A DNA stretch of 64,000 nt from Escherichia coli (GCF_024298765.1 NZ_CP101210.1), one strand, 5' to 3'. Positions 797-21,053 are shown, counted from the first letter of the stretch. A program made the numbers and translations. Notes: a model not told the origin generated them from the letters alone.

Positions 797-2431
797 TCAC
801 AGCATACCCTCCAGCTCATCCAGATCCGCCAGAATTTCTTTTTCCAAATCTTTTAAGCGCTTTAGTATCACCTTCGGATCTTCATATTCCTCCGCCTGAT
901 ACACCACTTCTTTATAACGATTGATAGAGAGATCGTATTTCTGCGCAGCAATATCCGCTTTCGGTACAACAAACGCCGCCTGCGTGCGATCTTTAAAATC
1001 AACGCCAGCATCAATCCCTTCCGGGTACTGCTGTTTAAGCAACGAGGCTAACTTCTCACCCATAAAGTTATCAACCGGTAGCCCGCGTAAAGTACGGTAA
1101 TGCTTCCAGCTTGCCAGCAGATGCGGCAGATCGTTGTCTTTTATCGGGTTGCGCTTATCATCCAGGCTGTAGCCATCATTTTGCAGATCGTAGAACCAGA
1201 CCTCATCCGTTTGACCGCCTTTGGTAAAGATCAGGATCGCCGTCGCCACGCCAGCGTAAGGTTTAAATACACCAGAAGGCAGATTGATCACCGCTTCCAG
1301 TTGGTTATCTTCCACCAGCGTTTTGCGAAGTGACTGGTGCGCCTTGCTGGAGCCAAACAGCACGCCCTGCGGCACGATAGTGGCACTGCGCCCGCCCACT
1401 TTCAGCATTTGCAGAATACGCGCCAGGAACAGCAGTTCGGTTTTTTTGGTTTTCACCATTGCCGACAACGTGGAGTCGATATCTTCCTCGTCCAGTGAAC
1501 CGGTAAAAGGCGGGTTCGCCAGAATCAGATTGAAAGCGTTTTTACTGGCCTGAGGGAAGTTAGTGCTGAAGCTCTGGCTCATGGTGTCCTGATAGTGAAT
1601 ATCCGGCGCTTCCACACCGTGCATAATCAGGTTCATAGCGGCGATACGCAGCATGGTGGTATCAAAATCGTAACCGTGGAACATATTGTTATCTACATGG
1701 TTACGCCACGGTGTCAGCAGATCGCCGGTAAAGATTTTTTGCTCTTCCAGTTCGCCACGTTCGTTGGTGCCAATCTCAGTATGGATGGATTCCAGCGAGC
1801 TGTACTTCTCCAGAAGATATTCATAGCTGGTTGCCAGAAAACCACCGGTGCCACAGGCGGGATCACAAATCGTCTCGCCGCGGGCCGGGTTCGGCTCCAT
1901 CATTTCAACCATCGTGCGGATAATGTGGCGCGGCGTGCGGAACTGACCGTTGATTCCGGCAGTGGTCAGCTTGCTTAACAGGTATTCGTAAAGGTCGCCT
2001 TTGGTGTCGCCACGATCCAGCGGCAGGTTTTTGATCACCTCAACCGCTTTGGTCAGTAATGACGGCTTAACAATCTCCAGACGAGCATCTTTCATAAAGT
2101 TGCCCAGCAGCGTCACCTTCGACGCATCGGCCTGGCCAAGCTGACGAAAATGCTGGAATACGCCATCGCGCACCACTTCCATCATCTCATCCGAGCCAAG
2201 ATTGCTATAGTGACTGAAACGGAACTCCTGCTGTTCTGGCGCAAAACGCGGTTTAAAATCAATTCCCGCGATTTGTTTACGCTTCTCGTCGCGTTGTTCC
2301 TGGGTATCCAGCATCCGGGAATACATCAGATAGGTGATCTGTTCGATTACGGTCAGCGGGTTGGTGATACCACCCACCCAGAAATCTTCCCACAGGCCGT
2401 CGATTTTACTTTTTAAGTCACCAGTGATCAT
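797..2431 (-). CDS. hsdM: Type I restriction-modification DNA methyltransferase subunit HsdM
   Basis: 544-aa ORF with ATG start; N6-adenine methyltransferase motifs ([10 protein letters not shown] AdoMet site, NPPF catalytic motif); gene order hsdR-hsdM-hsdS. Confidence 0.9.
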
Positions 2432-2449
2432 TGTTAGCGTTTATATCCT

Positions 2450-2483
2450 GTTTTAAATACAAAAGCCCCGCTGTCGGGGCTTG
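2450..2483 (-). terminator. Hairpin plus T-run between hsdR stop and hsdM start
   Basis: GCCCCG-CTGT-CGGGGC stem-loop (2465-2480) followed on the minus strand by a U-rich tract; lies in the 63-bp hsdR-hsdM gap. Confidence 0.35.
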
Positions 2484-2494
2484 TCATGTGCGTA

Positions 2495-5400
2495 TTATAC
2501 CGTCGCTGCGTCGGTCACAACACCCAGCTCTTCGACTATCTTTTGCAGGCGGGCGATCTGCTCTATATCCGGGAACACACCGGTAACGCCTTCGTTGTGG
2601 ATATGCGTAAAAGGCTGTTCAAAGAGCTGCCGCATTTCAATGGTGCCGTAATCGCGAATGTGGTTTTTCAGCAATGACAGGAAGCGCAGTTGTTGGCTGG
2701 TCAGACTGTTATCAGCGGCGAACTGAGCAAAGCGCACTTCCACCGCGTCGCTGTCCATCCCGATGATGGTACGCAAAAGTTTATCCAGGCTGGCAGTTGC
2801 CTGCGGATAGAACTCTTTCAGTGCCCGGATATCAACGTTGGGGTTCTGGATCAGCACCAGCTTCGCCAGCTCATCCAGCTCGTTTTGCGTGACTGGCTCA
2901 CCGTTGCGGATTTTCTTCAGCACCGGATTTTGCTGGAACAGCGGCTCCAACGCTCCCTGAACCTGCTGGCGATAGAGTTTGAAATCAATCGAGCGGATAT
3001 TAGTTTTGCGGGTCTCTGTCTGGATCAGGTTCGCATCTTCGGTAATATCTACCTGTATCGAACCAAATTTTGGCGTCGCGTCTTTTTCCATCAGGTGCAT
3101 GATGCCGCGCAGATGAATGCGGATATCTTCCAGCTCTTCCAGGCTGGCCTGCTTCCACCAGCCTAAATCACGAAGCTGATTGATCCGCGGTCCTTGCTGT
3201 TGGACCTGCGCCAAATGCGGCGGCAGGCGCTCCACTTTTTCGACGATGACCGGCCAGAGCACATCCAGCTCTTCCGGGTTGGTATAACGGGCAGTTTGCG
3301 CCGCCAGAATATCCATATCAAAGCGCATAGCGTCGCTTTGCCCGCGCACGTCCAGCCACTGCATCAGCGGGGCCAGGACAGATAGCAAATCCTGCTGTGT
3401 TTTCGGGGAAAGCTGGCGCAGCACTTTTTCATCGCTGTACTGCGCTTTTTGATGCCACTTTTCCTGGACGGCAATCGACTTTTCATCCAGTGCATTGATT
3501 TGCTCGCGTAGCTGGTGAGCAACTAAATCCACCGCCTGTTTGTCGAATTTACGTTGCGCAGCGGCCCCCAGCATAACCCACGCTTCGAAGCGTTTTTGTG
3601 CAAGCGATTTTGTCGCTGTGACTTCGGCCTCTTCGGTATGCAGTTCGTGATACTCAAAATTGCCCCAGTGATCGAAAATGCGGAATTTCTGTTTATCCAG
3701 AGGTTTGCCGTTATCGTCGTAACCGTACAACCCCGGACAGAGGCGCGTACCACGGCCAATCATCTGCCAGAACTTCACTTTTGATTTGACCGGTTTGGCA
3801 AAGACCAGATTCACAATTTCCGGGACATCAATACCGGTATCGAGCATGTCAACGGAGATAGCGATGGTCAGCTCTTTGTTGGTGCTTTCATCCAGCCCTT
3901 TAAAATCATCAATCAGTTGCTCGGCGCGGGGATCGTAATTGTCGATGACCTGGCAGAAGCGCCCGGCAAACTGCGGGTACATATCGTCGAATAATTCATT
4001 CAACAGCAGCGCGTGTTTGTGGTTACGGGCGAAAATGATGGTTTTACCTGGCAACTGGCCGTCCCGATCTTTCAGGCCATTTTCCATCAGGTTACGCAGG
4101 ATATAGCGGTTGGTGTCTTTGTTGTAGATCGCCTCATCCAGCGCCTTGCCATCAAACTCCAGCGTATTGGGATCTATGCCTTGTTCTTCCAGCTCGCGGA
4201 TTTGTGCGTCGCTTAATTTCTCCCGTTTGATGCCTTCGCGCAGGAATTCTGTGGTGTGCGTGACAACCTCATAGGGAACCAGATTGTTATCGGCGATGGC
4301 ATCTTCCAGGCTGTAGTTGGCGGTAGGAATACGTCCTTCACAACCAAACAGGCCGAAAGTGGTTTTACTCACCATGTCAATCGGCGTGGCCGTCAGGCCA
4401 ATCTGGAGGGCATCAAAATACTTAAACAGATCGCCGTAAACGTTGTAGATAGAGCGATGGGATTCATCGGCGATGATCAAATCGAAATAACCAACATCGA
4501 AATGGTCCATGATTTTCATCATACCAGGATAGGTGGCGATGTAGATCCTAGCATTCTGCCTGTCTGCTTTTTTCGATTTCCCGACCACATACAGCGGCTC
4601 ATTGGTGAATTGATTAAAGGCATTCGCCGCCTGTTTACGTAGTTCCTTGCGGTCGCAAAGAAACAGGACGCGTTTTACCCAGCGGGCATCAATCATCAGT
4701 TTGCTTAGCGCTATTGCCACGCGGGTTTTGCCTGTACCCGTAGCCTGAACAATTAGCGATTGCCGGTATTTGTTGGTAAACCGCTCGCTGACACGGGCAA
4801 TGGTTTCAAGCTGGTACAAACGTCCGGCAACGGCCTTACCTTCGTTATCTTTTACGTGCGGCACACTGTTCAGCGGAAGACGGGTTTCACGCTGTTGAAT
4901 AAGATATTGCAGGCTTTCCTTGCTGTAGAAGCCAAACACCCGACGCGGGGGATAACCATGAGTTTTATGGTCATCCCACAGCCAGATATCATAGCCGTTG
5001 GTGTAGAAGATGATCGGACGCTGGCCGTATTCTTTTTCCAGCCAGTCTGCATACAGCCGGGCCTGAATTCGTCCTTGCTCGGCATTGACGCTGGTTTTTT
5101 TTGCTTCCACCACCGCCAGCGGTTTGTGTGCCTCATCCCACAAGACATAGTCCGCATAACCGTCTCCGGTCGCGGTAGGTTGTTCTTTAACGGGATGTTC
5201 CTGCGTAACCTGATCGGTATTTTTAAGGCCTTCGCCTACATTCCAGTCAGCAGCAAGCAGGCGAGAGTCAATCAGGCGACGGCGGGTTTCCGCTTCATCA
5301 ATAGAGAGAATATCGGCAACATGCTGGTTACGCGCTCTGGCTTCATTCAGGCGTTGAGTGAGGTGTTCGGCCTTTTCCTGTTCTTGCTGTAGTGCGCGTT

Positions 5401-5911
5401 GCAGCGCCAGTTCGCGCTCACGGCTTTCATCCTGAGCCCTGATTGCATCTTCCAGACGTTTTTCATCTGCACGACCTGAAGATTGTGTTAATGGAGGGAG
5501 TGTAAATTTGGGGCAGTCATCAACATTACCGTGGGCGTAGCGAACATACAGCCAAATTCCCAACAAATACGCTTCTTTGAGCAGCCAGTAAGTATCTTTA
5601 GCTTTGATACGTCCGCCGTGCGCGGCACGGTTGCCATGGATACGCAGCGCATCCATTTTCATGATGATGGCTTCCGGCATCATGCTGGTAAAGACATCAG
5701 CATTCATTAAATCGTAAAGATTAGCCTTAATACCTTCCGGCAACCGCTCCTGACGATACAACCAGCGCACCATCAATTCGGTGTAGTTGCGCAGCTTGAC
5801 CAGACAGCTTTCCGGATCGGAGTGAACATAGCGTTCCGCCATACACGCGAGTTCAGCCAGTTCCGGCCACTGGCTGCGCAACATTTCAAAATTGAGAGAC
5901 TGCTCCATCAA
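2495..5911 (-). CDS. hsdR: Type I restriction enzyme endonuclease/helicase subunit HsdR
   Basis: 1138-aa ORF; N-terminus MMEQSLNFEML resembles EcoKI-type HsdR; PD-(D/E)xK-like segment (DYVLWDE...VVEAKK), Walker A QATGTGKT and DESH helicase motifs. First codon in track is TTG; ATG is the second codon (5908). Confidence 0.9.
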   Translation of the reverse strand: MMEQSLNFEMLRSQWPELAELACMAERYVHSDPESCLVKLRNYTELMVRWLYRQERLPEGIKANLYDLMNADVFTSMMPEAIIMKMDALRIHGNRAAHGGRIKAKDTYWLLKEAYLLGIWLYVRYAHGNVDDCPKFTLPPLTQSSGRADEKRLEDAIRAQDESRERELALQRALQQEQEKAEHLTQRLNEARARNQHVADILSIDEAETRRRLIDSRLLAADWNVGEGLKNTDQVTQEHPVKEQPTATGDGYADYVLWDEAHKPLAVVEAKKTSVNAEQGRIQARLYADWLEKEYGQRPIIFYTNGYDIWLWDDHKTHGYPPRRVFGFYSKESLQYLIQQRETRLPLNSVPHVKDNEGKAVAGRLYQLETIARVSERFTNKYRQSLIVQATGTGKTRVAIALSKLMIDARWVKRVLFLCDRKELRKQAANAFNQFTNEPLYVVGKSKKADRQNARIYIATYPGMMKIMDHFDVGYFDLIIADESHRSIYNVYGDLFKYFDALQIGLTATPIDMVSKTTFGLFGCEGRIPTANYSLEDAIADNNLVPYEVVTHTTEFLREGIKREKLSDAQIRELEEQGIDPNTLEFDGKALDEAIYNKDTNRYILRNLMENGLKDRDGQLPGKTIIFARNHKHALLLNELFDDMYPQFAGRFCQVIDNYDPRAEQLIDDFKGLDESTNKELTIAISVDMLDTGIDVPEIVNLVFAKPVKSKVKFWQMIGRGTRLCPGLYGYDDNGKPLDKQKFRIFDHWGNFEYHELHTEEAEVTATKSLAQKRFEAWVMLGAAAQRKFDKQAVDLVAHQLREQINALDEKSIAVQEKWHQKAQYSDEKVLRQLSPKTQQDLLSVLAPLMQWLDVRGQSDAMRFDMDILAAQTARYTNPEELDVLWPVIVEKVERLPPHLAQVQQQGPRINQLRDLGWWKQASLEELEDIRIHLRGIMHLMEKDATPKFGSIQVDITEDANLIQTETRKTNIRSIDFKLYRQQVQGALEPLFQQNPVLKKIRNGEPVTQNELDELAKLVLIQNPNVDIRALKEFYPQATASLDKLLRTIIGMDSDAVEVRFAQFAADNSLTSQQLRFLSLLKNHIRDYGTIEMRQLFEQPFTHIHNEGVTGVFPDIEQIARLQKIVEELGVVTDAATV

Positions 5912-6004
5912 TCATCGCCTTATGTCGTGGATACAACAGCATTTCTGGAAAGAATATCACACTAATTTGGCCGACGAAGTGAGCCGGAAAGGGCGGAATT
6001 ACCA

Positions 6005-6337
6005 TTAATTCTCATATTTAAAGTCGATGTTTATTTTGAGTGTTTCAATATTCACAGTGACTTCGCAACCATGCCAGAATGGCTTTTCTTGTGATTTAAA
6101 GTTATCCACAAACAAATTTCTTAGTTCCACCAAAAGATCTAAAAGTCTTTCACTGGCATCTGCGGTTTCAGTGATCCAATGTTGATTGCCCTGTTTATCT
6201 ACATAGTCATAAGTAAACTCACCACAGTCGCTTTCCGGTTCTAACTTTGCACACAGAATGATTTTGACTGCATCACTAGGAGTGATCGATAGCAACACCG
6301 AACCAATGTCATTATAAATATCCTGATCAGAACGCAT
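6005..6337 (-). CDS. Putative CdiI-type immunity protein for the adjacent CdiA-CT nuclease
   Basis: 110-aa ORF whose ATG (6337-6335) overlaps the TAA stop of the toxin ORF (TAATG coupling); small acidic protein, AT-rich; position typical of cdiI. Confidence 0.55.
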   Translation of the reverse strand: MRSDQDIYNDIGSVLLSITPSDAVKIILCAKLEPESDCGEFTYDYVDKQGNQHWITETADASERLLDLLVELRNLFVDNFKSQEKPFWHGCEVTVNIETLKINIDFKYEN

Positions 6338-9300
6338 TATTTACCTCCGGGTGCATTGTTAAATACTTTTTCAATCGGGCGACCTCCATCTATCGAATAT
6401 ACTACTTTAAATTTAGCAGGTCTGACACTATCCCCAATATACGATGGCTGAATGTTGACCTTAACCTCTTTTCCTTCACCCAATGCTTTTGCCCAAGTAT
6501 TTTCCATCTGCTTCCAGGCTCCTTTGTTCAGATTTCCATCCATTGGAACAAGGTTCAATTTTTCACCAGGACCATTAAAAATACTGGCTATTAAATGACC
6601 ACCCTCATCTCCATCAAGGCCACACTTACCTGCTTTACATTGTTGATAGCCATTTCTATCCTTTACATTAGGACTAAGAGTTGCTTCAACCTGGCTTGGC
6701 CTTGCCTGAGCATCAGTTTTATAAATTTTATCACCATCTACATGATAAACTTTATTCGGCTGTGGGTTATTTAGCTCTTTGCTCCAGTTCCCTTTACCAC
6801 CTGAGTCTAGCATCAGCTTTTCAAGTGACTCCGCACTGATTTTCTGACCTGTCTGTTTTTCAACAGCCATTAGAGCCTTCAACTCTGACAACTCGCTGGC
6901 AGACATTTTACCAACCGCCGCTACTGTCAGGCCCGCTGGAAGAGCATCGCCAGCGACCATTTCCGCAACCCAGATACTAACTTCATTTGCACACAGCACA
7001 GTATTCGCACCACAGGCACTGACTGCTGCCTGGGCGGCTGCAATTGCTTCCGGAGTCAGAGCAATCACTACCCCACCTGTAGCCCCCCCAACAAGCGCTG
7101 CTGCAATCGCTTTGTTTACAGCCTCACCGCGTTTACATTCAGCCCCGCCAGGGTTAGTCGAGCAGGACGCAATATCTTTGCCATGCTCCTGCACGAACTT
7201 GGTCTGAGTGTCTTCATTACCACCCAGCAGGTTATTCTCAACAACATTCTTCCCAGCAGCAGCTCCGGTAGCCACACCCGCAGTATTCCCACCTGCAACA
7301 CCACCCGCCATACCTGCTGAGATACTCGCCAGCGTACTTAGCGTCTGCTTCTGGTCCTCGGTCAGCTTCGACAGGTCTTTCTCATCCGGATATAAAACCT
7401 TCGCGATTGCACCTGCGATAAGTTCACCGCTCACCGCACCGACTGAACCTGCTGCGGCATTATTTCCCTGAAGAGCCGCAGTCACACCGCCGAGAATGGC
7501 ATGAGCAATGGCTTTCGCTGCATCGTTATCATTAATTCCAGCATTGTGCCCTATGAAGTTTGCCAGTTCCGGTGCAGAAGCTCCGGCCAGAGCACCCGCT
7601 AAATTCCCCCCAGCCAGTCCCTGAAGCGCGGCTGTCGCGGCCTGGATACCCCGCTGCATATCGCTACCGGTACCATACTTTTCCTGTTCCTTTTTGTATT
7701 CCGGCGTATCACGCAGTTTTGCCAGATATGCCTGCCGCTGTTCTTCCGTCGTATCCGCCGGAACAGGCCCATATTTATCCTGCGCAGCCTTCAACGCATT
7801 CAGTTCACCCTGCGTCCGCGCGATATCCGCCACCTGACTGCCTATGTCACTGATAAGCCCCACTGTCTGCAGACGCCTCTGCTCTTTCTCCTTGTCAAAT
7901 ATCGGGCTGATACTGTCGTTGGCGTGTTCCGGGTCACGGCTCAGGTTCGCCAGATTCTGCTTCTGATTGTCCCTGTCCCGGATGGTGATAGTGCCTTCTG
8001 CCACTGCGGCCTGAGTCGTTCCTTCCGCATGTCCGCTGTGACCTCCGGCGGATATCATGCCACCCGGCATGTTACCCTGAAATTTATCCCCGAAGCTGCC
8101 ACCACCGCTCAGACTGATTCCACTGTGACTGACTTTATAATCCGCTTCGTTGTGAAGGTCACTGAACCCCAGCGTTCCGGTATCCAGGTGGTTTTTATCC
8201 GGTGTGGCAGTGGAGGCAATCACCGCACCATCCAGTTGGGTATGTTTACCCACTGTGATGTCGAAGCCGCCGTCACCGGCAAACATTCCGGTTTGTTCAG
8301 CAACGGAGTCAAAGCGGCTCTTCATCTTATCCCGGGAGGCAGCGATGTAACCTGAGCCGGTCATGGAGCCAAAGGTAAAACTGCCGCCGGCAGCCACGCT
8401 GGTCTGTTTACTGTCGTACTTACTGGTGTCCTGCTGGCTGCTTATCAGCAGGTCGTGGCCCACATCGGCGATAATCCTGTTGCCGTTGACCTGAGCACCG
8501 TTCAGTACCGTATCCCGACCACTGTTGATGGTGACGGTTTTACCGCTGTCTATTGTGGTTTCAGTCCACTCAGTACCGTTACCTTTCTCGCTGCCTTTTG
8601 CCGCATTAACGCTGGCAAAGACACTGATACCGGCACCGTTACCACCGGCACCGATACTGACACCCACGCCACCGCCACTGCTGCTGTTCCTGCCCGTTGT
8701 TTTTTGTGTGTTTGCCGCGCCACTCAACAGAACATCATTCGCAGCATCCAGGTTTGTGTTACCACCGGCCTTAAGCTGGCTTCCGGCAATCACAATATCT
8801 CCGCGGTTATCGCCCCTGTTTTTACCGGTTGCGACAACAGACAGATTATTCCCGGCATTCAGCGTACTGCCGGATACTGTGTCACTTTCAGAATGTTGTT
8901 GTGATTTCGATTTCTGGGTGGTGAGCGACAGGCTGACTCCCATCGCATTCGGGTCACCGGTTGCGGAGGCCATTGCCGCAGCCTGTCCGGCCTGCACACC
9001 AGACAGCGCTGTCTTTGTAGCCTGCAGGGTTTTCAGACGGCTGTCACTGCTCTCCTTCGTCTCCTGTGCACTGGTGACCGCATTATTGATGGCACTGCCC
9101 ACTGTGCCGGAAAGGGCAACCGTCAGCCCGCTTTTCTTCTGCTCAAATTTTTCGTCCACAGTACGACGGTCATGCCCCGGGTCAACCACCACACTGTCAC
9201 CGGTAATGCTGATATCCCGGTTCGCAATCACATCCGAACCGCTGATATGAGCCTGTTTGCCCGCGGTAATACTGACATTACCGGCAGTGGAGCCGATGGT

Positions 9301-9801
9301 ACTGGCACTCTGACTCTGCGTTGTCCCGGCCTCGCGGCGGTCGTGCGTTGTCTTACTGCTGCCAATGGTGAAGCCAATACCGCCGGTACCCATCAGACCG
9401 GATTTCTTCGTTTCCTTAAAGCGCCAGGACGTATCTGTACTGGTGGCAGCAAGAACATCAACATGGTTACCCGCCGCCAGTGACACATCCCGGTCAGCCA
9501 CCACATCCGAACCCTCTACCGTCAGGTTATCACCGGCGTTAACGGTCACGCGGTTCCCCGACAGCAGGGAGCCTGCTTCACGGGAGGCACTGTTCTCACT
9601 GATGGTGTGGGTGGTTTTCTTACTGAGAAAACCTCCGCTTTTTTTCTTCGTTTCCAGATAGTGATAGTCACTTTCTGTCGCCGTGGTCAGGGCGACATCA
9701 CGACCGGCATTCACACTGATATTGCCGGTTGCGGTAACGGATGACGCAACAGCGGTGATACGCATACTGAAGAGCATTCCGTATAAAGATTCAGCTGGCA
9801 A
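6337..9801 (-). CDS. cdiA: 5'-truncated CdiA (contact-dependent inhibition toxin) fragment: FHA-repeat region, pretoxin-VENN, C-terminal nuclease toxin domain
   Basis: Gly/Ser/Thr-rich filamentous-haemagglutinin-type repeats; [16 protein letters not shown]...AGKNVVENN pretoxin-VENN motif (VENN codons at 7231-7242); 297-aa CT with GHLIAS...[14 protein letters not shown] resembling the Serratia nuclease / Endonuclease_NS active-site region. No signal peptide or TPS domain; frame opens at a stop with TTG as first codon, no cdiB nearby. Confidence 0.8.
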
Positions 9802-10032
9802 AACTTTATCAGTCCATAAAAATCAACGGAAGCGCAGATGGTTCACACGTCCATTACCAACTGATTGTTGTCACAACCGGTAACACAAAGTACTGAACGA
9901 CTGTTTTTAACAGCGGTGTTGCGTCATCCACCACCGTGAAACAACGCTGTGCAGGGAATCGTCCGCATCCCCATAACGGTCAAACATCGTGGCGTTGACA
10001 GAATGACCGACGAAAAGCCAGAAAGCGCTGAT

Positions 10033-10581
10033 TCACTGAGCTGTAATCAATGTACAGCGCTGTACCGGACGATGGGTAATGGCGGTCACAACCGGTAACC
10101 CCAGAGACAATGCGACTGTTTTTAACGCAACATACTGACCGGATGTATCACCCCGGGCAACCCGAAAACACCTTTCCACCCGGCATTGTCCGCCAGCACT
10201 TATCACCTGCCAGCTATGTTGCAGTAAATCCACCACTTGCGAACATTGTTCATCAACTGTGACACAGGCTCGCGGGTGACAAATACTCGTCTGGCTGAGC
10301 AGCAACAGGCATCGAATTGTTGCTCCTCCATGTTGTTCCCGCAACCAGCGTAATACCACCGACGATGATGGACTGGCAGTGTGATTGCTCTCAGTAATAC
10401 GTTCATGCAGTTGTCGATAAAAGGAAGTACAGAATGCATGAATCTGTTGCCCGTTGATATTTCCTTCTGCCGAATGGAGTGTGAAGTAAAATGCCAGCAA
10501 ATGCGGCCAGTGGTCCACCGCCTGCTGAACAAAACGCCGGATGTCTCCCGGCTCTGAAATTAAGGCTTCGGTTATTTGCAC
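10033..10581 (-). CDS. Hypothetical protein (possible remnant at the cdiA truncation junction)
   Basis: 182-aa ORF with overlapping alternative frame; no recognisable motifs; low coding confidence. Confidence 0.2.
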   Translation of the reverse strand: MQITEALISEPGDIRRFVQQAVDHWPHLLAFYFTLHSAEGNINGQQIHAFCTSFYRQLHERITESNHTASPSSSVVLRWLREQHGGATIRCLLLLSQTSICHPRACVTVDEQCSQVVDLLQHSWQVISAGGQCRVERCFRVARGDTSGQYVALKTVALSLGLPVVTAITHRPVQRCTLITAQ

Positions 10582-11026
10582 GAAATGTTCCTTTTCAAAC
10601 CCTGTTGGATTTTGTCAAGACGGTACAGACACAGTAAAGCGCGCATCAACACCTGAAAGGTACGATACAAACACAAGTTACAAACAATAAGAACGGAAGG
10701 ACAATTAATCAGTGAGGAATAATAACTAAATTAACCAAAAGAATGTTACTGACAATACCACCAATACTTAAATAGCAATATATTAATTAATGTAAGAACA
10801 GATGCCCGGTAAGACATATACACAATACATCCACAAACACACTCTTTTCATTAAATAAATCACCTGATTAAACCATGAAAGTGTGATGTAAGTCAAAATT
10901 ACTGACACAATCAATTGATAATGATTATCTCTATCATTATCGTGAAATTCGAGAATGAAAGGAGAAGTAGTCATTATAAGTCTTTTATAAATCGTCATCA
11001 TCATAGTAAAGTAGAACACTTTTTAT

Positions 11027-11485
11027 ATGAGTTACTATATGAAAATATACTGGACAAGAAAAAACATTCCTGAACTTTCAGCACTTCCACCTTCATTAAG
11101 AAAGAAAAATTTTACTGACGCATATAATGCTGCATCTTCCCATATCGAATACTGGATAGGTGCTGGCGTCTCATTTATCTCGATGATGATTTTATTCAAA
11201 GTATATGACTTTCTTTTACCCGCCCAAGATACTTTCCCGGGTGATATCATAAGAAGTTTATGTGTTGTGTGTCCATCCATATTAATCTGGTTTCAGTTTT
11301 CGGTATATGTCATGAGGAAATATTACAGACATATTCTGGAACGAGGTAAGGAAACCGAAACCATTTCAGAAAGGTTGATACGTGAGGCTGATACACGAGA
11401 ATATGAATTATGGCGTCCGGCCCATCGCTTTTTCTCCATTATTCTATTAGTTTGCATTCATTCACTGATAACAACTATAAAATAA
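11027..11485 (+). CDS. Hypothetical small membrane protein (microcin-locus accessory)
   Basis: 152-aa ORF with ATG start, two or more hydrophobic segments; AT-rich, adjacent to the CPBP gene and microcin genes. Confidence 0.4.
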   Translation: MSYYMKIYWTRKNIPELSALPPSLRKKNFTDAYNAASSHIEYWIGAGVSFISMMILFKVYDFLLPAQDTFPGDIIRSLCVVCPSILIWFQFSVYVMRKYYRHILERGKETETISERLIREADTREYELWRPAHRFFSIILLVCIHSLITTIK

Positions 11486-11584
11486 AAGTTATGGCTGTTC
11501 TGATACAGGAAAATAAACGTTCATTCTATGGTTACCTCTTCCTGTTATATAAAAGAATTTTAAACAACAAGTAAGGGAATATAA

Positions 11585-12271
11585 ATGGAAATAACAAAAA
11601 ATAAAAATGCAACTATAAAAAAACAGTCATCAGCCGGCTGCTTTTCAATGTTTACTTTATCATTTTCCATTACCTTTATTCCTGCATTTCTTACAAACAG
11701 GCAGGAACTTATATCCAGGGGGCTTCTTGTTCCAGCATTATTTCTTGCTGAATTTCTAATTCTTGTTCCACTGTATTTTATTTTCTTCCGAAAAAGAGAA
11801 GGATTAGGAAGAGGTTCTTTTCGACTGGATGTTTTTTTTACTCTTTTCTCTTTAATAATGATTATTCAGTTATTTGTCCCTTATCTGCTGGCAGTGAGGA
11901 AAACGGAAGAATGGATGATCTCGCAAATGTCTTTTTCCGGGGCCATTTTATGGATTAATATATTTTCTTCCGTACTTCTTGTTCCTGTATATGAAGAGAT
12001 TGTATTTCGAGGGTGTCTTTTTAACTCTTTTAAATTCTGGTTTAATGACAATATTTACATCTCTGCTATTGTAACATCAGTCATATTTTCTGCATTACAT
12101 CTACAATATACTGACTTTCGTACATTTTTGATGCTCTTTCTGATATCGTTAGTTCTTATCAGTGCAAAAATAAAGTCGAATGGCCTGTTAATGCCCATAT
12201 TACTTCACATGGCGATGAATGCAGTCATAACAGGAATACAATATACGTTACAATATCACATAACAGTCTGA
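11585..12271 (+). CDS. CPBP-family (CAAX protease / Abi) intramembrane metalloprotease-like protein, putative bacteriocin self-immunity
   Basis: 228-aa polytopic membrane protein with family motifs EEIVFRG, FSALHL and LLHMAMN; ATG preceded by AAGGGAA Shine-Dalgarno. Confidence 0.75.
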   Translation: MEITKNKNATIKKQSSAGCFSMFTLSFSITFIPAFLTNRQELISRGLLVPALFLAEFLILVPLYFIFFRKREGLGRGSFRLDVFFTLFSLIMIIQLFVPYLLAVRKTEEWMISQMSFSGAILWINIFSSVLLVPVYEEIVFRGCLFNSFKFWFNDNIYISAIVTSVIFSALHLQYTDFRTFLMLFLISLVLISAKIKSNGLLMPILLHMAMNAVITGIQYTLQYHITV

Positions 12272-12695
12272 AATTGTTATTATGAGATATCTATAACACC
12301 TGAAGTTGGAAAAAGAAGCAAATAATTCCTTATAAGGAATCGTTTACTAATATATTTAGATGATCTCATATTTGTTTATGATATACATCTGATTAAGATA
12401 TAATGGATTATAAATTACTCAAAGGTGAACAAATATCTTCGCCTTTTCTCGTAGAAAGAGACTTGAAACTTATAATACATCTATATAAACGTGATTTAAA
12501 TCACGATTTGCAGTAAAAGCAATTGGTATAATTCATTGGTATTACTATTATTTCATCTATTGCACGAACTATTTTACAACAATAAAAAAGATATACAAAC
12601 AGCAAGAAGTAAAAATATTCGGATAAATAAAAATTTTTGCTACCTTGGTTTCTATAGTCTTTATTTCTAAGTTTTTCATAAGCACTCAAAGACTC

Positions 12696-12881
12696 ATGTA
12701 TAGGGACGGTTTAATAATGAAACTATTTTTTTATTTCTCGTTGTTCTTTATAATACAACTTATAAATTCAGACTTAGACACATTAACCCTTTATCTTTTC
12801 ATAAAGAAAATAATTCTTTCGTTACTTGCGAGTGTACTGTTTTTATTTGTTTTATCTTTCTTTAATAAAAAGAGGAAATAA
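12696..12881 (+). CDS. Putative microcin immunity protein (small hydrophobic membrane peptide)
   Basis: Hydrophobic ORF ending 1 nt before the microcin-like ATG; the track starts it at a TTG (12645); in-frame ATGs at 12696 and 12717; resembles MchI/McmI-class immunity peptides in size and position. Confidence 0.5.
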   Translation: MYRDGLIMKLFFYFSLFFIIQLINSDLDTLTLYLFIKKIILSLLASVLFLFVLSFFNKKRK

Positions 12882-12882
12882 C

Positions 12883-13206
12883 ATGAGAAATATAACAACC
12901 GATGAACTTGCTTTAATACATGGTGCAGGATTAGATAAAGATGCATCCGTTGCAATAGGTACTGCGGCTGGTGGTTTTTTAGGTAAAGCAACAAAAATCC
13001 CTGGTGCGGATATAGCAGGAAGTGCAATTGGAGGATATATTGGAGGAGTTATTGCTGATGGTTCAAATAGGACAATAACAATACCATCAAACGGTATTAA
13101 CTATAATCCGGGTATAGGACTTGGAAGTTTTAATCCAAACTACAATGGAGGTTTATTAAACTCAGGATTTAACTCATCAACATCCTCTTCTAGTAGTGGA
13201 AGTTGA
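12883..13206 (+). CDS. Class IIb (siderophore-type) microcin-like precursor, not assignable to a named microcin
   Basis: 107-aa ORF; leader MRNITTDELALIHGA|G of double-glycine type; Gly/Ala/Ile-rich core; C-terminal Ser-rich tail SSTSSSSSGS as in salmochelin-modified microcins; AAGAGG Shine-Dalgarno overlaps the upstream stop; convergent on mchF. Confidence 0.7.
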   Translation: MRNITTDELALIHGAGLDKDASVAIGTAAGGFLGKATKIPGADIAGSAIGGYIGGVIADGSNRTITIPSNGINYNPGIGLGSFNPNYNGGLLNSGFNSSTSSSSSGS

Positions 13207-13215
13207 TTAATTTCT

Positions 13216-13253
13216 AAAGCAGCATAGCTTATTATGCAGCAATGCTGCTTTTA
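13216..13253 (+). terminator. Rho-independent terminator after the microcin-like gene
   Basis: AAGCAGCAT...ATGCTGCTT inverted repeat followed by TTTT, 10 bp after the stop. Confidence 0.45.
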
Positions 13254-13266
13254 GTGATATATTATC

Positions 13267-15369
13267 CTAATTTGTAATTCTAAAAATCCGATCAACTGTT
13301 CTTAAAGTTGTCTCTCTATGTGCAATAATCACCCGGGTGATATTCATCTTTTTTATAGCAGCATTCACGAAACGTTCACTTTCTGTATCAAGAGAACTTG
13401 TAGCCTCATCCATAAATAATATTCCAGGTTTCCGGTATAAAGCTCGGGCAATGAATATACGCTGTTTTTGACCGCCGGAAAGACCTTCCCCCAGTTCACC
13501 TATTAACGTTTCATACCCCATTGGCATTTTCATTATCACATCATGAATATGACTTGCTCTGGCACATTCTGTCATCCATTCGTCGTCTGTTTCTTCTGCA
13601 AACCCACAGATATTTTCACGAATTGATCCTGAAAATAGCCGGTCGTCCTGCATAACACAGGCTATCATACGGTGATAATTATTTATTCCAAGTTGACGTA
13701 TATCCGTGCCATTAACCAGTACTTTTCCACTATCTGGTTCAAACAGTCCACATAATACTTTCATTAATGTGGTTTTTCCGGCACCGGAGGCACCAGTTAT
13801 AGCCACACTTTCTCCCGGAGCCACAGACAAATTCAGACCACTGAATACCTGTGCTGACTGGCTGTCATACCGGTAGCTTAAATCAGTGGTTTCCAGTGAA
13901 ACCGGGCTCATGTCAGCAACGATTTCAATTTCCGGTTTCTTTTCTTCCTTTTCATGTAGTGCAATATCTGCAATGCGCTCATTATGCAGACTCATTATTC
14001 TCAGTTGAAGAAGAAAACTGGTCAGCGAAGCAACCCGATCCGAAAACTGCCCACGAAAAGAACCAAATGCCACAAACATCCCTATTGTCATCTGATTATC
14101 GATCACAAGGCTTGCACCCAGCCATAAAATCGCCACCTGATCACAGGCGGCAACAAAAGTATTTATCCCCCCGAAGAGCAAATCCATCCTGGTTAACTTA
14201 ATACCTGAATTGATCGCATCTATTTTCAGGTTAAGCCAGTGTGTTCCCCGAATCCCAGCCATACCCTGGATTTTTACCGTGGCAATACCATACAGGCTTT
14301 CCATAAAATAGGAGCTGGCCCGGGCCCCCCTGACAAGAGTTTCTTCCGATATTTGCCGGTAATAGCCGTATGTCACCAGACGAATAAGAACGTAAACCAT
14401 GGTAAAACCGAGCACTATCCAGGTAAGATATCCTCCATATAACAGCATCATCACAAAAACACCCACAACCATAATACTGTCCATGATTGCCCCAACAACA
14501 CAGGTGGTAAAGGTGGCCCTCAAAGTGTCAAGGGAGCCAAAACGCGACTGGATATCACCTAATTTACGGCGTTCAAAAAACGCCAGCGGCAGTCTGAGAA
14601 GATGGTTAAACAGACCCGACTGCCACTGTATATTGATGAGCGTGCTCATAACCAGTGAGGACCATGCACGCAGCATACTCACCGCGGCCCTGAGCAATAT
14701 AAAGAACATCAGGCCAGCAGAAATAAGCGTCAGCAGCCCTCTGTCCCCCGCCGGAATCGCATGATCCATAACCAGCTGAGTTCCCACCGGCATTACCAGA
14801 TTGATTGCTTCAATTACAACTGACAGACAGAAAATTTTCGCCAGTGTTCTTTTAATACCGTAAATACTGTTAATCAGTGAACGGAGACTTATGCGGGTCT
14901 GCTGGGTTTCCGCCAGGAATTCACTTCCGGGCCAGACCTCAAGTGCAATGCCCGTAAAATACCGGCTCATTTCCTCCCGACCGAGATATCTTCTGCCTCT
15001 GGCCGGATCATGCAGTACATAACGGTTACGCTTTACGCTGACCAGCACGACGAAGTGACTGAAATCCCAGTGGAGAATACACGGCATTTTGAGGGCACCA
15101 AGTTCATCCAGCTCCAGTGAAAGAGCCCGGGTGACCATCCCCAGCTGCTCCGCTATTCCATTGATTCCTGCAAGGTTTGCTCCACGGGCCGAGAGATTAA
15201 ACTTCCGGCGAAGAGATATCAGGTCAATATTCTTACCAAAATGACCGCATATCATTGCCAGGCAGGCCAGTCCACATTCAGCGGTCTCCGTCTGATGAAT
15301 AACCGGAACACGACGTCGCCAGCGCATATCAAGCTGATTTATAATTTGTCTGAAATTCCCGTTAGTCAT
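13267..15369 (-). CDS. mchF: Microcin ABC exporter with N-terminal C39 peptidase domain (CvaB/MchF family)
   Basis: C39 peptidase motif [15 protein letters not shown], six TM segments, Walker [13 protein letters not shown] signature LSGGQKQR. Track start 15387 is GTG; ATG at 15369 gives [10 protein letters not shown]. Confidence 0.9.
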
Positions 15370-19088: not shown

Positions 19089-19316
19089 TTAGCTACCGCC
19101 ACCAGCAGAAGAACTGGCACTACCACTTCCCACGGTCGAGCCAATTGCTGTTGTCAAACCGGCAGATACGGCTCCAACTACAACCCCAAGTGGACCACCA
19201 GGTATTCCGGCGAGAGCTCCAACAATAGCTGCAGCACCTGCAGCATTAGCTGAAGTCGCTGGCGCACCTCCCGCCCCGGAAATATATCTTAACTGTGATT
19301 CTGTTATTTCTGGCAT
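19089..19316 (-). CDS. mchB: Microcin H47 precursor
   Basis: 75-aa ORF MPEITESQLRYISGAGGAPATSANAAGAAAIVGALAGIPGG...GSGSASSSAGGGS: double-glycine leader, Ala/Gly-rich core and Ser-rich tail matching MccH47 as I recall it (recalled residue 2 is R, here P). Confidence 0.9.
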   Translation of the reverse strand: MPEITESQLRYISGAGGAPATSANAAGAAAIVGALAGIPGGPLGVVVGAVSAGLTTAIGSTVGSGSASSSAGGGS

Positions 19317-20816: not shown

Positions 20817-21053
20817 ATGAGAGAAATATCAGATCACATGCTTGATTTCGTGAAAGGAGGGATGAATCTTAATGGATTACCTAGTTCTACTAATGTAATA
20901 GATCTACGAGGAAAAGATATGGGAACATATATTGATGCTAATGGAACATGCTGGGCTCCGGGTACTCCATCCATCATCATGTATCCGGGGGGAAGTGGAC
21001 CTTCTTATAGTATGAGTAGTTCCACATCCAGCGTAAACAGCGGCACATCATAA
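20817..21053 (+). CDS. mchS2: Microcin I47-like precursor
   Basis: 78-aa ORF MREISDHMLDFVKGG|MNLNGLPSSTNVIDLRGKDMGTYIDANGTCWAPGTPSIIMYPGGSGPSYSMSSSTSSVNSGTS: double-glycine leader, Ser-rich tail; closely resembles MccI47 as recalled; GCAGGAGG Shine-Dalgarno. Confidence 0.75.
   Translation: MREISDHMLDFVKGGMNLNGLPSSTNVIDLRGKDMGTYIDANGTCWAPGTPSIIMYPGGSGPSYSMSSSTSSVNSGTS

Follow-up and report, generated by a model that had tools for sequence, protein, structure and literature searches.

The class IIb microcins of the Escherichia coli Nissle 1917 type are being engineered as narrow-spectrum antimicrobials, and one gene of their islands, mcmM, is widely used as a polymerase chain reaction marker for microcin M (MccM). 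Together with mcmT, mcmM or its counterpart mceF is the last gene of these islands without a demonstrated function. The mcmM product is described as a protein of 228 amino acids with seven transmembrane (TM) segments and similarity to mceF; the gene was reported in strains CA46, CA58 and Nissle, the producer strain H47 not being among its carriers (Baquero et al. 2019, PMC6795089). McmT, cloned from Nissle 1917, is given in the same review as a protein of 156 amino acids with three TM segments that has a homologue in E. coli O157:H7, in a region with a glycosyltransferase gene. The theses quoted there report that cloned mcmT confers resistance to microcins H47 (MccH47) and M and, in part, to MccE492 as well as MccV, and that MceF negatively regulates immunity to MccE492; as quoted, they give no evidence that mcmM is needed for immunity to MccM or MccH47. 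Here we analyse both genes in a stretch of 64,000 nucleotides of E. coli DNA (GCF_024298765.1, NZ_CP101210.1; referred to as the window, with positions counted from its first letter), where they lie next to each other at the edge of a siderophore-microcin island.

The first-pass annotation of the window had noted two open reading frames (ORFs) for membrane proteins of 152 and 228 amino acids in an AT-rich microcin region, and this is what we find: the G+C fraction at 10.5-13 kb is 0.29-0.36 and the surrounding island is of the H47 type. The elements on which the argument turns are the following.

10911-10943, plus strand: Fur-box-like site in three overlapping registers, TCAATTGATAATGATTATCTCTATCATTATC, ca. 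100 nucleotides upstream of mcmT.
11027-11485, plus strand: mcmT, a small inner-membrane protein with three TM segments, 152 amino acids from the first ATG.
11585-12271, plus strand: mcmM, a 228-amino-acid CPBP/Rce1-like intramembrane glutamic protease and homologue of MceF.

The 152-amino-acid ORF is mcmT and the 228-amino-acid ORF is mcmM, so that the finding re-identifies known, already named genes in a published variant of the island. New are the Fur box upstream of mcmT, the retention of mcmT as an orphan gene in enterohaemorrhagic E. coli (EHEC) and other genera, and the existence of core, Fur-boxed mcmM orthologues in Citrobacter. The identity and anatomy of both genes are settled, and from these we infer a mechanism. 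In the reading that we prefer, and that we hold with about even confidence, mcmT and mcmM would form an iron-regulated accessory module at the end of the class IIb island, in which McmT protects broadly and McmM is a protease with a modulating role.

The assignment of the 228-residue protein to the CPBP family on the basis of its motifs is borne out by profile searches. McmM matches the Rce1-like Pfam family PF02517 over residues 122-214 with E = 2.4e-17 (63.4 bits against a cut-off of 22.4), and CPBP models of NCBIfam match as well, only below their equivalog cut-offs. The sequences EEIVFR (137), FSALH (168) and HMAMN (208) represent the family motifs EExxxR, FxxxH and HxxxN/D, and residues E137, E138, R142, F168, H172, H208 and N212 are among the 25 columns that are invariant in 23 CPBP family members. 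With about seven hydrophobic segments the protein conforms to an Rce1-like polytopic helical membrane fold. McmM is a CPBP/Rce1-like protein with all catalytic residues intact and, judged by its sequence, should be competent as a protease.

For comparison at the nucleotide and protein level CFT073 and GN02350, which share the island context with F1C fimbriae, served as a proxy for the Nissle 1917 sequence. In both strains the order beside the F1C fimbrial genes is a gene for a 170-amino-acid hypothetical protein (minus strand), the 152-amino-acid ORF (plus), the 228-amino-acid CPBP gene (plus), mcmA (minus) and mchF (minus). The McmM protein of CA46, Nissle 1917 and CFT073 (WP_000426105.1) has the same length and motifs as the window protein and is likewise encoded between mcmT and the cassette that adjoins mchF. 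The window protein is identical to the CFT073/GN02350 CPBP at 215 of 228 positions (94%). The two differ in the last 8 residues and in six other substitutions. Furthermore, the neighbouring microcin gene is co-oriented with mcmM in the window whereas mcmA is convergent with it in the CFT073 type.

The second protein was correctly noted as a membrane protein: McmT has three hydrophobic segments at residues 44-66, 74-96 and 133-152, and its AlphaFold2 model is helical (mean confidence, pLDDT, of 71), with an N-terminal cytoplasmic helix followed by three long helices. It agrees with the McmT of the Bravo-Vazquez thesis, as far as that work is quoted by Baquero et al. 2019, in island type, number of TM segments and the O157:H7 homologue near a glycosyltransferase. 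The translation start deserves comment. RefSeq places it at 11039, which gives 148 amino acids, and the CFT073-type ORF read from an upstream ATG (MSCYMKIYW...) is 156 amino acids long. Because all McmT homologues outside E. coli begin with MKIYW, the real start is probably 11039 (148 amino acids in the window, 152 in CFT073). The window allele has a 12-nucleotide deletion (around 11440-11450) that removes four residues, VFLI, from the third TM segment as compared with CFT073 and EDL933.

Searches for relatives of McmT gave neither a family nor a fold. The family has no match in Pfam, NCBIfam or PADLOC, a Foldseek search against the PDB gave nothing below an E value of 0.6, and a profile search of 1.84 billion representative sequences found only 77 relatives, all unannotated and in uninformative contexts. 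The remote members are about 105 amino acids long, with an N-terminal MKIYWTxKSIPEL motif and two TM segments. A relationship with MchS3, the 144-amino-acid immunity protein for microcin I47 (MccI47), was considered and dropped as no similarity was found, and a role in anti-phage defence was likewise set aside, given the empty PADLOC result. An alignment of 16 McmT sequences has 38 invariant columns. The ratio of nonsynonymous to synonymous substitution rates (dN/dS) among E. coli alleles, each estimate based on few changes, is 0.21-0.31 for mcmT, orphan copy included, and 0.35 for mcmM; in comparisons with distant homologues the synonymous sites are saturated. Since both genes are conserved across genera and have low dN/dS among E. 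coli alleles, their sequences indicate that both are real genes.

Upstream of mcmT a 16/19 match to the Fur 19-mer consensus occurs at 10917-10935, flanked by two overlapping registers that match at 14/19. No other site of the window matches the Fur consensus as well. It overlaps a σ70-like promoter (TTGATA-17-TATCGT, 10915-10943), and the Fur-box-like sequence is identical in the CFT073-type and EDL933 loci. The spacer between mcmT and mcmM is 99 nucleotides long, no terminator is predicted in it, and mcmM is preceded by a good Shine-Dalgarno sequence, AAGGGA. A Fur-repressed mcmT-mcmM operon would be the simplest reading of this arrangement. Within the same spacer, at 11506-11570 on the plus strand, there is a match to the Rfam Lnt RNA that scores 29.4 bits (gathering score 55, E 0.18); we discarded an RNA element at this place because the match is below threshold and probably due to chance.

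The mechanism that we propose starts from this operon. Iron starvation would induce it along with the catecholate receptors that siderophore-microcins use for entry. McmT would then be a broad, non-cognate protector that lowers sensitivity to several TonB-dependent class II microcins, probably by acting at a shared envelope step and not on a specific target. MccH47, MccM, MccE492 and MccV have different inner-membrane targets and share TonB-dependent entry via Fur-regulated catecholate receptors. Because entry is common to the four despite the different targets, a Fur-controlled McmT that blunts the shared step fits the cross-resistance, and protection at such a step is equally in line with the retention of mcmT as an orphan gene. 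McmM would be an active intramembrane protease that modulates the system, for instance through turnover of small membrane immunity or protective proteins, without being an immunity protein itself. Neither gene would be needed for microcin maturation or export. McmM travels with the microcin clusters and is apparently dispensable for production and immunity, so it is best read as a modulator.

That neither protein is the cognate immunity factor of the adjacent microcin follows from the organization of the cassette downstream of mcmM.

12245-13281, plus strand: microcin Ec W cassette, which replaces the MccM cassette (mcmI/mcmA).
12717-12881, plus strand: ecwI, the 54-amino-acid cognate immunity peptide of microcin Ec W.
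12883-13206, plus strand: ecwA, the 107-amino-acid class IIb microcin Ec W precursor with a 15-amino-acid leader ending in GA and a serine-rich C-terminus.

BLASTN comparison with the CFT073-type locus shows homology at 10116-12244 that resumes at 13282, which places the breakpoints of the swap at 12244/12245 and 13281/13282. The last eight residues of McmM differ from those in CFT073 because the left breakpoint lies inside the 3' end of mcmM, within its last 9 codons, and makes the C-terminus chimeric (TLQYHITV versus LASISYTH). The paper that described Ec W put it "between mchF and mcmM", at the position of MccM and without nucleotide resemblance to it (PMC12999681). The 165-nucleotide ecwI gene, separated from ecwA by one nucleotide, matches the description given there for NCTC10444, and EcWI was necessary for growth during expression of EcWA (PMC12999681). 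Since EcWI is the immunity peptide of Ec W itself, neither mcmT nor mcmM is the cognate immunity gene. A cognate class II immunity gene encodes a small peptide immediately upstream of the microcin gene, is co-transcribed with it and is needed for survival of the producer; in the window this role belongs to ecwI and not to mcmM or mcmT. The distance from the end of mcmM to ecwI is 445 nucleotides and mcmT is farther away. In this stretch of the cassette (12272-12716) we found no convincing gene.

No additional double-glycine peptide gene had been seen beside the pair in the first-pass annotation, and an exhaustive scan agrees. Among all start-to-stop ORFs of 20-170 amino acids on both strands of 10500-13300, none in the 10.5-12.7 kb region has a double-glycine-type leader, and the only one that does between 10.5 and 13.3 kb is ecwA. 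A 62-amino-acid minus-strand ORF at 12501-12689 matched just the loosest leader pattern and was rejected. Presence of the genes in other strains was counted at a coverage of at least 80% of the length among 5426 complete E. coli genomes, of which 116 have the Ec W version of the locus.

In the same genome set mcmT and mcmM differ in their distribution. mcmT is found in 1027 genomes and mcmM in 418, against 387 chromosomal places with mchEF; plasmid-borne mchEF matches at 90-95% identity, presumably cvaAB of ColV plasmids, were set apart. The excess of mcmT over the ca. 390-420 genomes with mcmM or chromosomal mchEF is inflated by the oversampling of clonal O157:H7 strains. E. coli has no copy of mcmM outside microcin islands. 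The mcmT gene outlives the island, notably in a remnant carried by EHEC, where it remains intact in the absence of the production genes while mcmM is truncated. In O157:H7 EDL933 (6123-10026 of the retrieved locus; two places in the genome) this remnant consists of the gene for the 170-amino-acid hypothetical protein, intact mcmT, mcmM interrupted by the insertion sequence IS1 some 27 codons from its start, part of an esterase gene and an intact glycosyltransferase gene. The truncation point of mcmM is the same in O157 and O111 strains.

Beyond E. coli, homologues of McmT with 51-65% identity occur in Raoultella, Salmonella and Klebsiella without a CPBP or microcin genes nearby. One of these, in Klebsiella sp. 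WOUb02 (59% identity; 1716-8465 of the retrieved locus), lies beside a DUF2569 gene and a cluster encoding ExbD, a TonB-like protein, a TonB-dependent receptor and ExbB; this is a single case and possibly a chance neighbourhood. The first-pass annotation had proposed orphan immunity, that is protection against a competitor's bacteriocin, for the CPBP protein or its neighbour. Orphan immunity fits McmT better than the CPBP, given the thesis-level cross-resistance and the retention of the orphan gene on one side, and on the other the lack, in the theses as quoted, of evidence that mcmM is needed for immunity.

Several points weigh against the protective module proposed here. All phenotypes stem from unpublished theses quoted in a single review, and we found no peer-reviewed test of them in the literature searched; overexpression of a small membrane protein can lower microcin sensitivity non-specifically. 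The loss of four residues from the third TM segment might impair the McmT allele of the window. The fold and profile searches with McmT yielded no functional lead. Both the Fur box and the co-transcription are deduced from sequence features. Finally, McmT and McmM do not co-occur outside E. coli, and a protease-substrate relation between them is weakly founded because a Salmonella CPBP is found without McmT and McmT homologues are found alone.

The best surviving alternative, which we nevertheless regard as unlikely, is that McmM itself is an immunity protein of the Abi/CPBP type, either auxiliary for the microcins of the island or an orphan directed against the siderophore-microcins of competitors, with McmT being incidental. 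The statement in the first-pass annotation that such a protein serves in microcin S immunity was right: McsI, a CAAX-family protein of 216 amino acids, confers immunity to microcin S (PMC3316575). The catalytic motifs of McmM are intact, and class IIb clusters with different microcin cassettes, both in E. coli and on Salmonella plasmids, retain its gene at their edge. On a Salmonella contig with plasmid-type genes an McmM homologue with 54% identity stands beside a complete class IIb-like cluster, in the order CPBP, a 96-amino-acid peptide with a double-glycine leader and a serine-rich tail, a 55-amino-acid immunity-like ORF and homologues of MchF, MchE, MchD and MchC, without McmT. Near-identical CPBP genes are present on Salmonella plasmids, and in one Salmonella locus the class IIb cluster is deleted and the CPBP gene kept.

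Further support for immunity by McmM may be sought in Citrobacter. Every chromosomal McmM orthologue of this genus has a Fur-box match of 16-17/19, GATAATGAGAATTTTTATC, located ca. 70-95 nucleotides upstream of the CPBP start, and would be expressed when catecholate receptors are derepressed. As a control, matches of at least 16/19 were found in 7 of 2000 random 270-nucleotide windows from the same loci. No Fur box was present upstream of the Serratia, Pantoea, Erwinia or Salmonella copies examined. The Citrobacter boxes keep a possible iron- or microcin-linked role of McmM alive. Ec W was inactive on Citrobacter, Serratia, Klebsiella oxytoca and Enterobacter (PMC12999681), and among these insensitive genera Citrobacter, Serratia and one Enterobacter species carry chromosomal relatives of McmM; however, this genus-level correlation is confounded by phylogeny and receptor differences. 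Immunity as the primary role of McmM is also opposed by the dedicated small immunity peptide that each microcin of the island already has (MchI for H47 and MchS3 for I47, besides EcWI), by the failure of McsI to protect against MccM or MccH47 (PMC3316575), and by the thesis-level accounts in the review, where MceF appears as a negative regulator of MccE492 immunity and mcmM is not evidenced as needed for immunity. The distant relatives of McmM are syntenic core genes and not strain-variable orphans, which therefore argues against orphan immunity for the CPBP.

These distant relatives are also the mainstay of a second alternative, in our view improbable, according to which neither gene has a microcin-specific role: McmM would be an envelope protease with a housekeeping role in Enterobacterales, which the island captured and which hitch-hikes with it, and McmT an unrelated small membrane protein. 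In none of 42 Enterobacterales loci with full-length McmM relatives of 28-57% identity, taken from species-representative genomes (Enterobacter, Citrobacter, Serratia, Erwinia, Pantoea, Mixta, Tatumella, Hafnia and others), do MchF-, MchE-, MchC- or MchD-like genes or McmT lie within 10 kb. Separate look-ups in metagenomes and in assemblies, among them those of Citrobacter, Serratia and Raoultella, likewise gave stand-alone relatives. Synteny of the gene extends over 7 Citrobacter-type loci and, in part, over Erwiniaceae. As syntenic core genes the stand-alone relatives point to housekeeping as much as to immunity, and the McmT relatives belong to a small, widespread family in unrelated contexts. 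Homologues consistently encoded far from bacteriocin loci had been named in the first-pass annotation as the outcome that would speak against a microcin role; this is indeed the situation for the distant relatives, but the E. coli and Salmonella copies are linked to the clusters. The linkage to class IIb genes recurs in these two hosts at a protein identity of only 54% and survives replacement of the adjacent cassette, and E. coli has no chromosomal mcmM elsewhere. Moreover, the Fur box is in keeping with an island regulated by iron, the island copies are under purifying selection, and a resistance phenotype is reported for mcmT in the thesis literature. As a separate observation, products with weak similarity to McmM (below 60% identity, mostly partial) are encoded on more than 4000 plasmids of enterobacteria, most of them conjugative and found in Escherichia or Klebsiella, which suggests a common plasmid-borne CPBP gene unrelated to the island.

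A wider version of the immunity idea would make McmM-type CPBPs, defined as the clade with at least 50% identity, part of a Fur response to iron starvation that handles or counters siderophore-microcins at the inner membrane. Such proteins would be core in genera such as Citrobacter and acquired only with the island in E. coli, Klebsiella and Salmonella, and would be one factor in the insensitivity of whole genera to class IIb microcins, McmT being a second, independent and broad protector that is left as an orphan in EHEC. We consider this distinctly improbable.

Least probable of all is that McmM assists the MchEF exporter in export or maturation, for example in precursor processing or in clearing leader or unmodified peptides at the membrane: mcmM adjoins the exporter genes and microcin cassette in E. 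coli and Salmonella, and SilX, a CAAX protease of Streptococcus anginosus, is needed for bacteriocin production via signal-peptide processing and not for immunity, but the 'export' label that two papers attach to mcmM comes without accompanying data, mature microcin is treated as requiring mchCDEF and mcmL, strain H47 produces MccH47 though not listed as an mcmM carrier, and pJAM229, in which mceF is truncated, is given as a production cluster for MccE492 (in a paper that reports neither its activity nor a comparison with intact mceF).

The suggestion that the pair is an accessory factor of the neighbouring microcin named the right general class, with McmM being an MceF homologue at the edge of a class IIb cluster, although the genes were already named. 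Their place at the island edge is ordinary for an E. coli siderophore-microcin island. The region has 100% identity with its counterpart in the chromosome of E. coli ACN002, and the RefSeq annotation of that strain together with the ORFs of the window gives an H47-type island with microcins H47, I47 and Ec W. Its flanking features are:

13267-15369, minus strand: mchF, microcin export peptidase/ATP-binding cassette transporter, from the RefSeq annotation of the ACN002 locus and the ORFs.
10033-10581, minus strand: gene for a hypothetical protein of 182 amino acids, divergent from mcmT, which accompanies mcmT in the CFT073-type and EHEC loci.

The minus-strand order is mchF, mchE, mchD, mchC, mchB and mchI, followed beyond mchI by mchS3, the MccI47 precursor gene, an esterase gene and a glycosyltransferase gene; in EDL933 intact mcmT likewise lies with an esterase remnant and a glycosyltransferase gene, beside the IS1-truncated CPBP gene. 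The 182-amino-acid protein is 81% identical to its CFT073 neighbour, a 170-amino-acid gene product there, and has no family in Pfam, NCBIfam or PADLOC. Its gene could share the Fur-boxed intergenic region with mcmT.

Some further observations concern the microcins and the island border. The H47 precursor (19089-19316, minus strand) has Pro for Arg at leader residue 2 (MPEITES versus MREITES in CFT073) and is otherwise identical. A MccI47-type precursor of 78 amino acids, ending in ...SSTSSVNSGTS, is encoded at 20817-21053 on the plus strand and is unannotated by RefSeq in ACN002. The canonical MccI47 peptide has 77 amino acids and ends in ...ANSGS, and the modification site of the window precursor may differ from it. 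At the other side the island abuts a large, N-terminally truncated CdiA/hemagglutinin-repeat gene with a toxin C-terminus (6337-9801 and upstream, minus strand). After this CdiA-type gene ACN002 has an immunity gene of the YezG family and a type I restriction-modification system, and a CdiA fragment likewise lies close to the microcin island of CFT073. In the window, the junction of the truncated CdiA-type gene with the island contains a 42-nucleotide imperfect direct repeat (79%; 9870-9911 and 10085-10126) that overlaps the 3' end of the 182-amino-acid gene. Att-like repeats have been described for the H47 island (PMC3191183), to which this repeat may be related; no third copy occurs in the window.

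If mcmT, or mcmT and mcmM together, do provide iron-induced broad protection, they would be a ready-made resistance determinant that would limit microcin-based therapeutics. mcmT is already present in about a fifth of the complete E. coli genomes, EHEC included. The Fur box and the orphan retention make the idea of a protective module directly testable.

Compared with proteins of known structure, McmM has 15-17% identity to SpdC/LyrA of Staphylococcus aureus (6u0o) and Rce1 of Methanococcus maripaludis (4cad), neither of which was detected by sequence or Foldseek searches. SpdC serves a hydrolase as a partner without catalytic function, whereas in McmM every catalytic residue is preserved. The Abi/CPBP proteins of Gram-positive bacteria, including SilX, belong to the same fold family and occur at class II bacteriocin loci, in roles that range from immunity to peptide processing; their hosts differ in membrane architecture, and the bacteriocins of the window are siderophore-modified and TonB-dependent. 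McsI resembles McmM in its family, CPBP, and in its genetic setting in E. coli, next to a class II microcin gene and an ABC/HlyD exporter. This likeness is at the level of family and gene neighbourhood, and McsI is the sole cognate immunity protein for microcin S while the microcins of the window each have a small immunity peptide. For MceF of the Klebsiella pneumoniae microcin E492 cluster the likeness is taken from its published description, and its role as an immunity regulator is a thesis-level report on MceF, not on McmM; a search of newer literature found no functional study of MceF or McmM. Relatives of McmM with ca. 60% identity and Klebsiella-type annotations were found, and MceF, described as closely similar to mcmM, stands like it at the end of a class IIb cluster, following the exporter genes.

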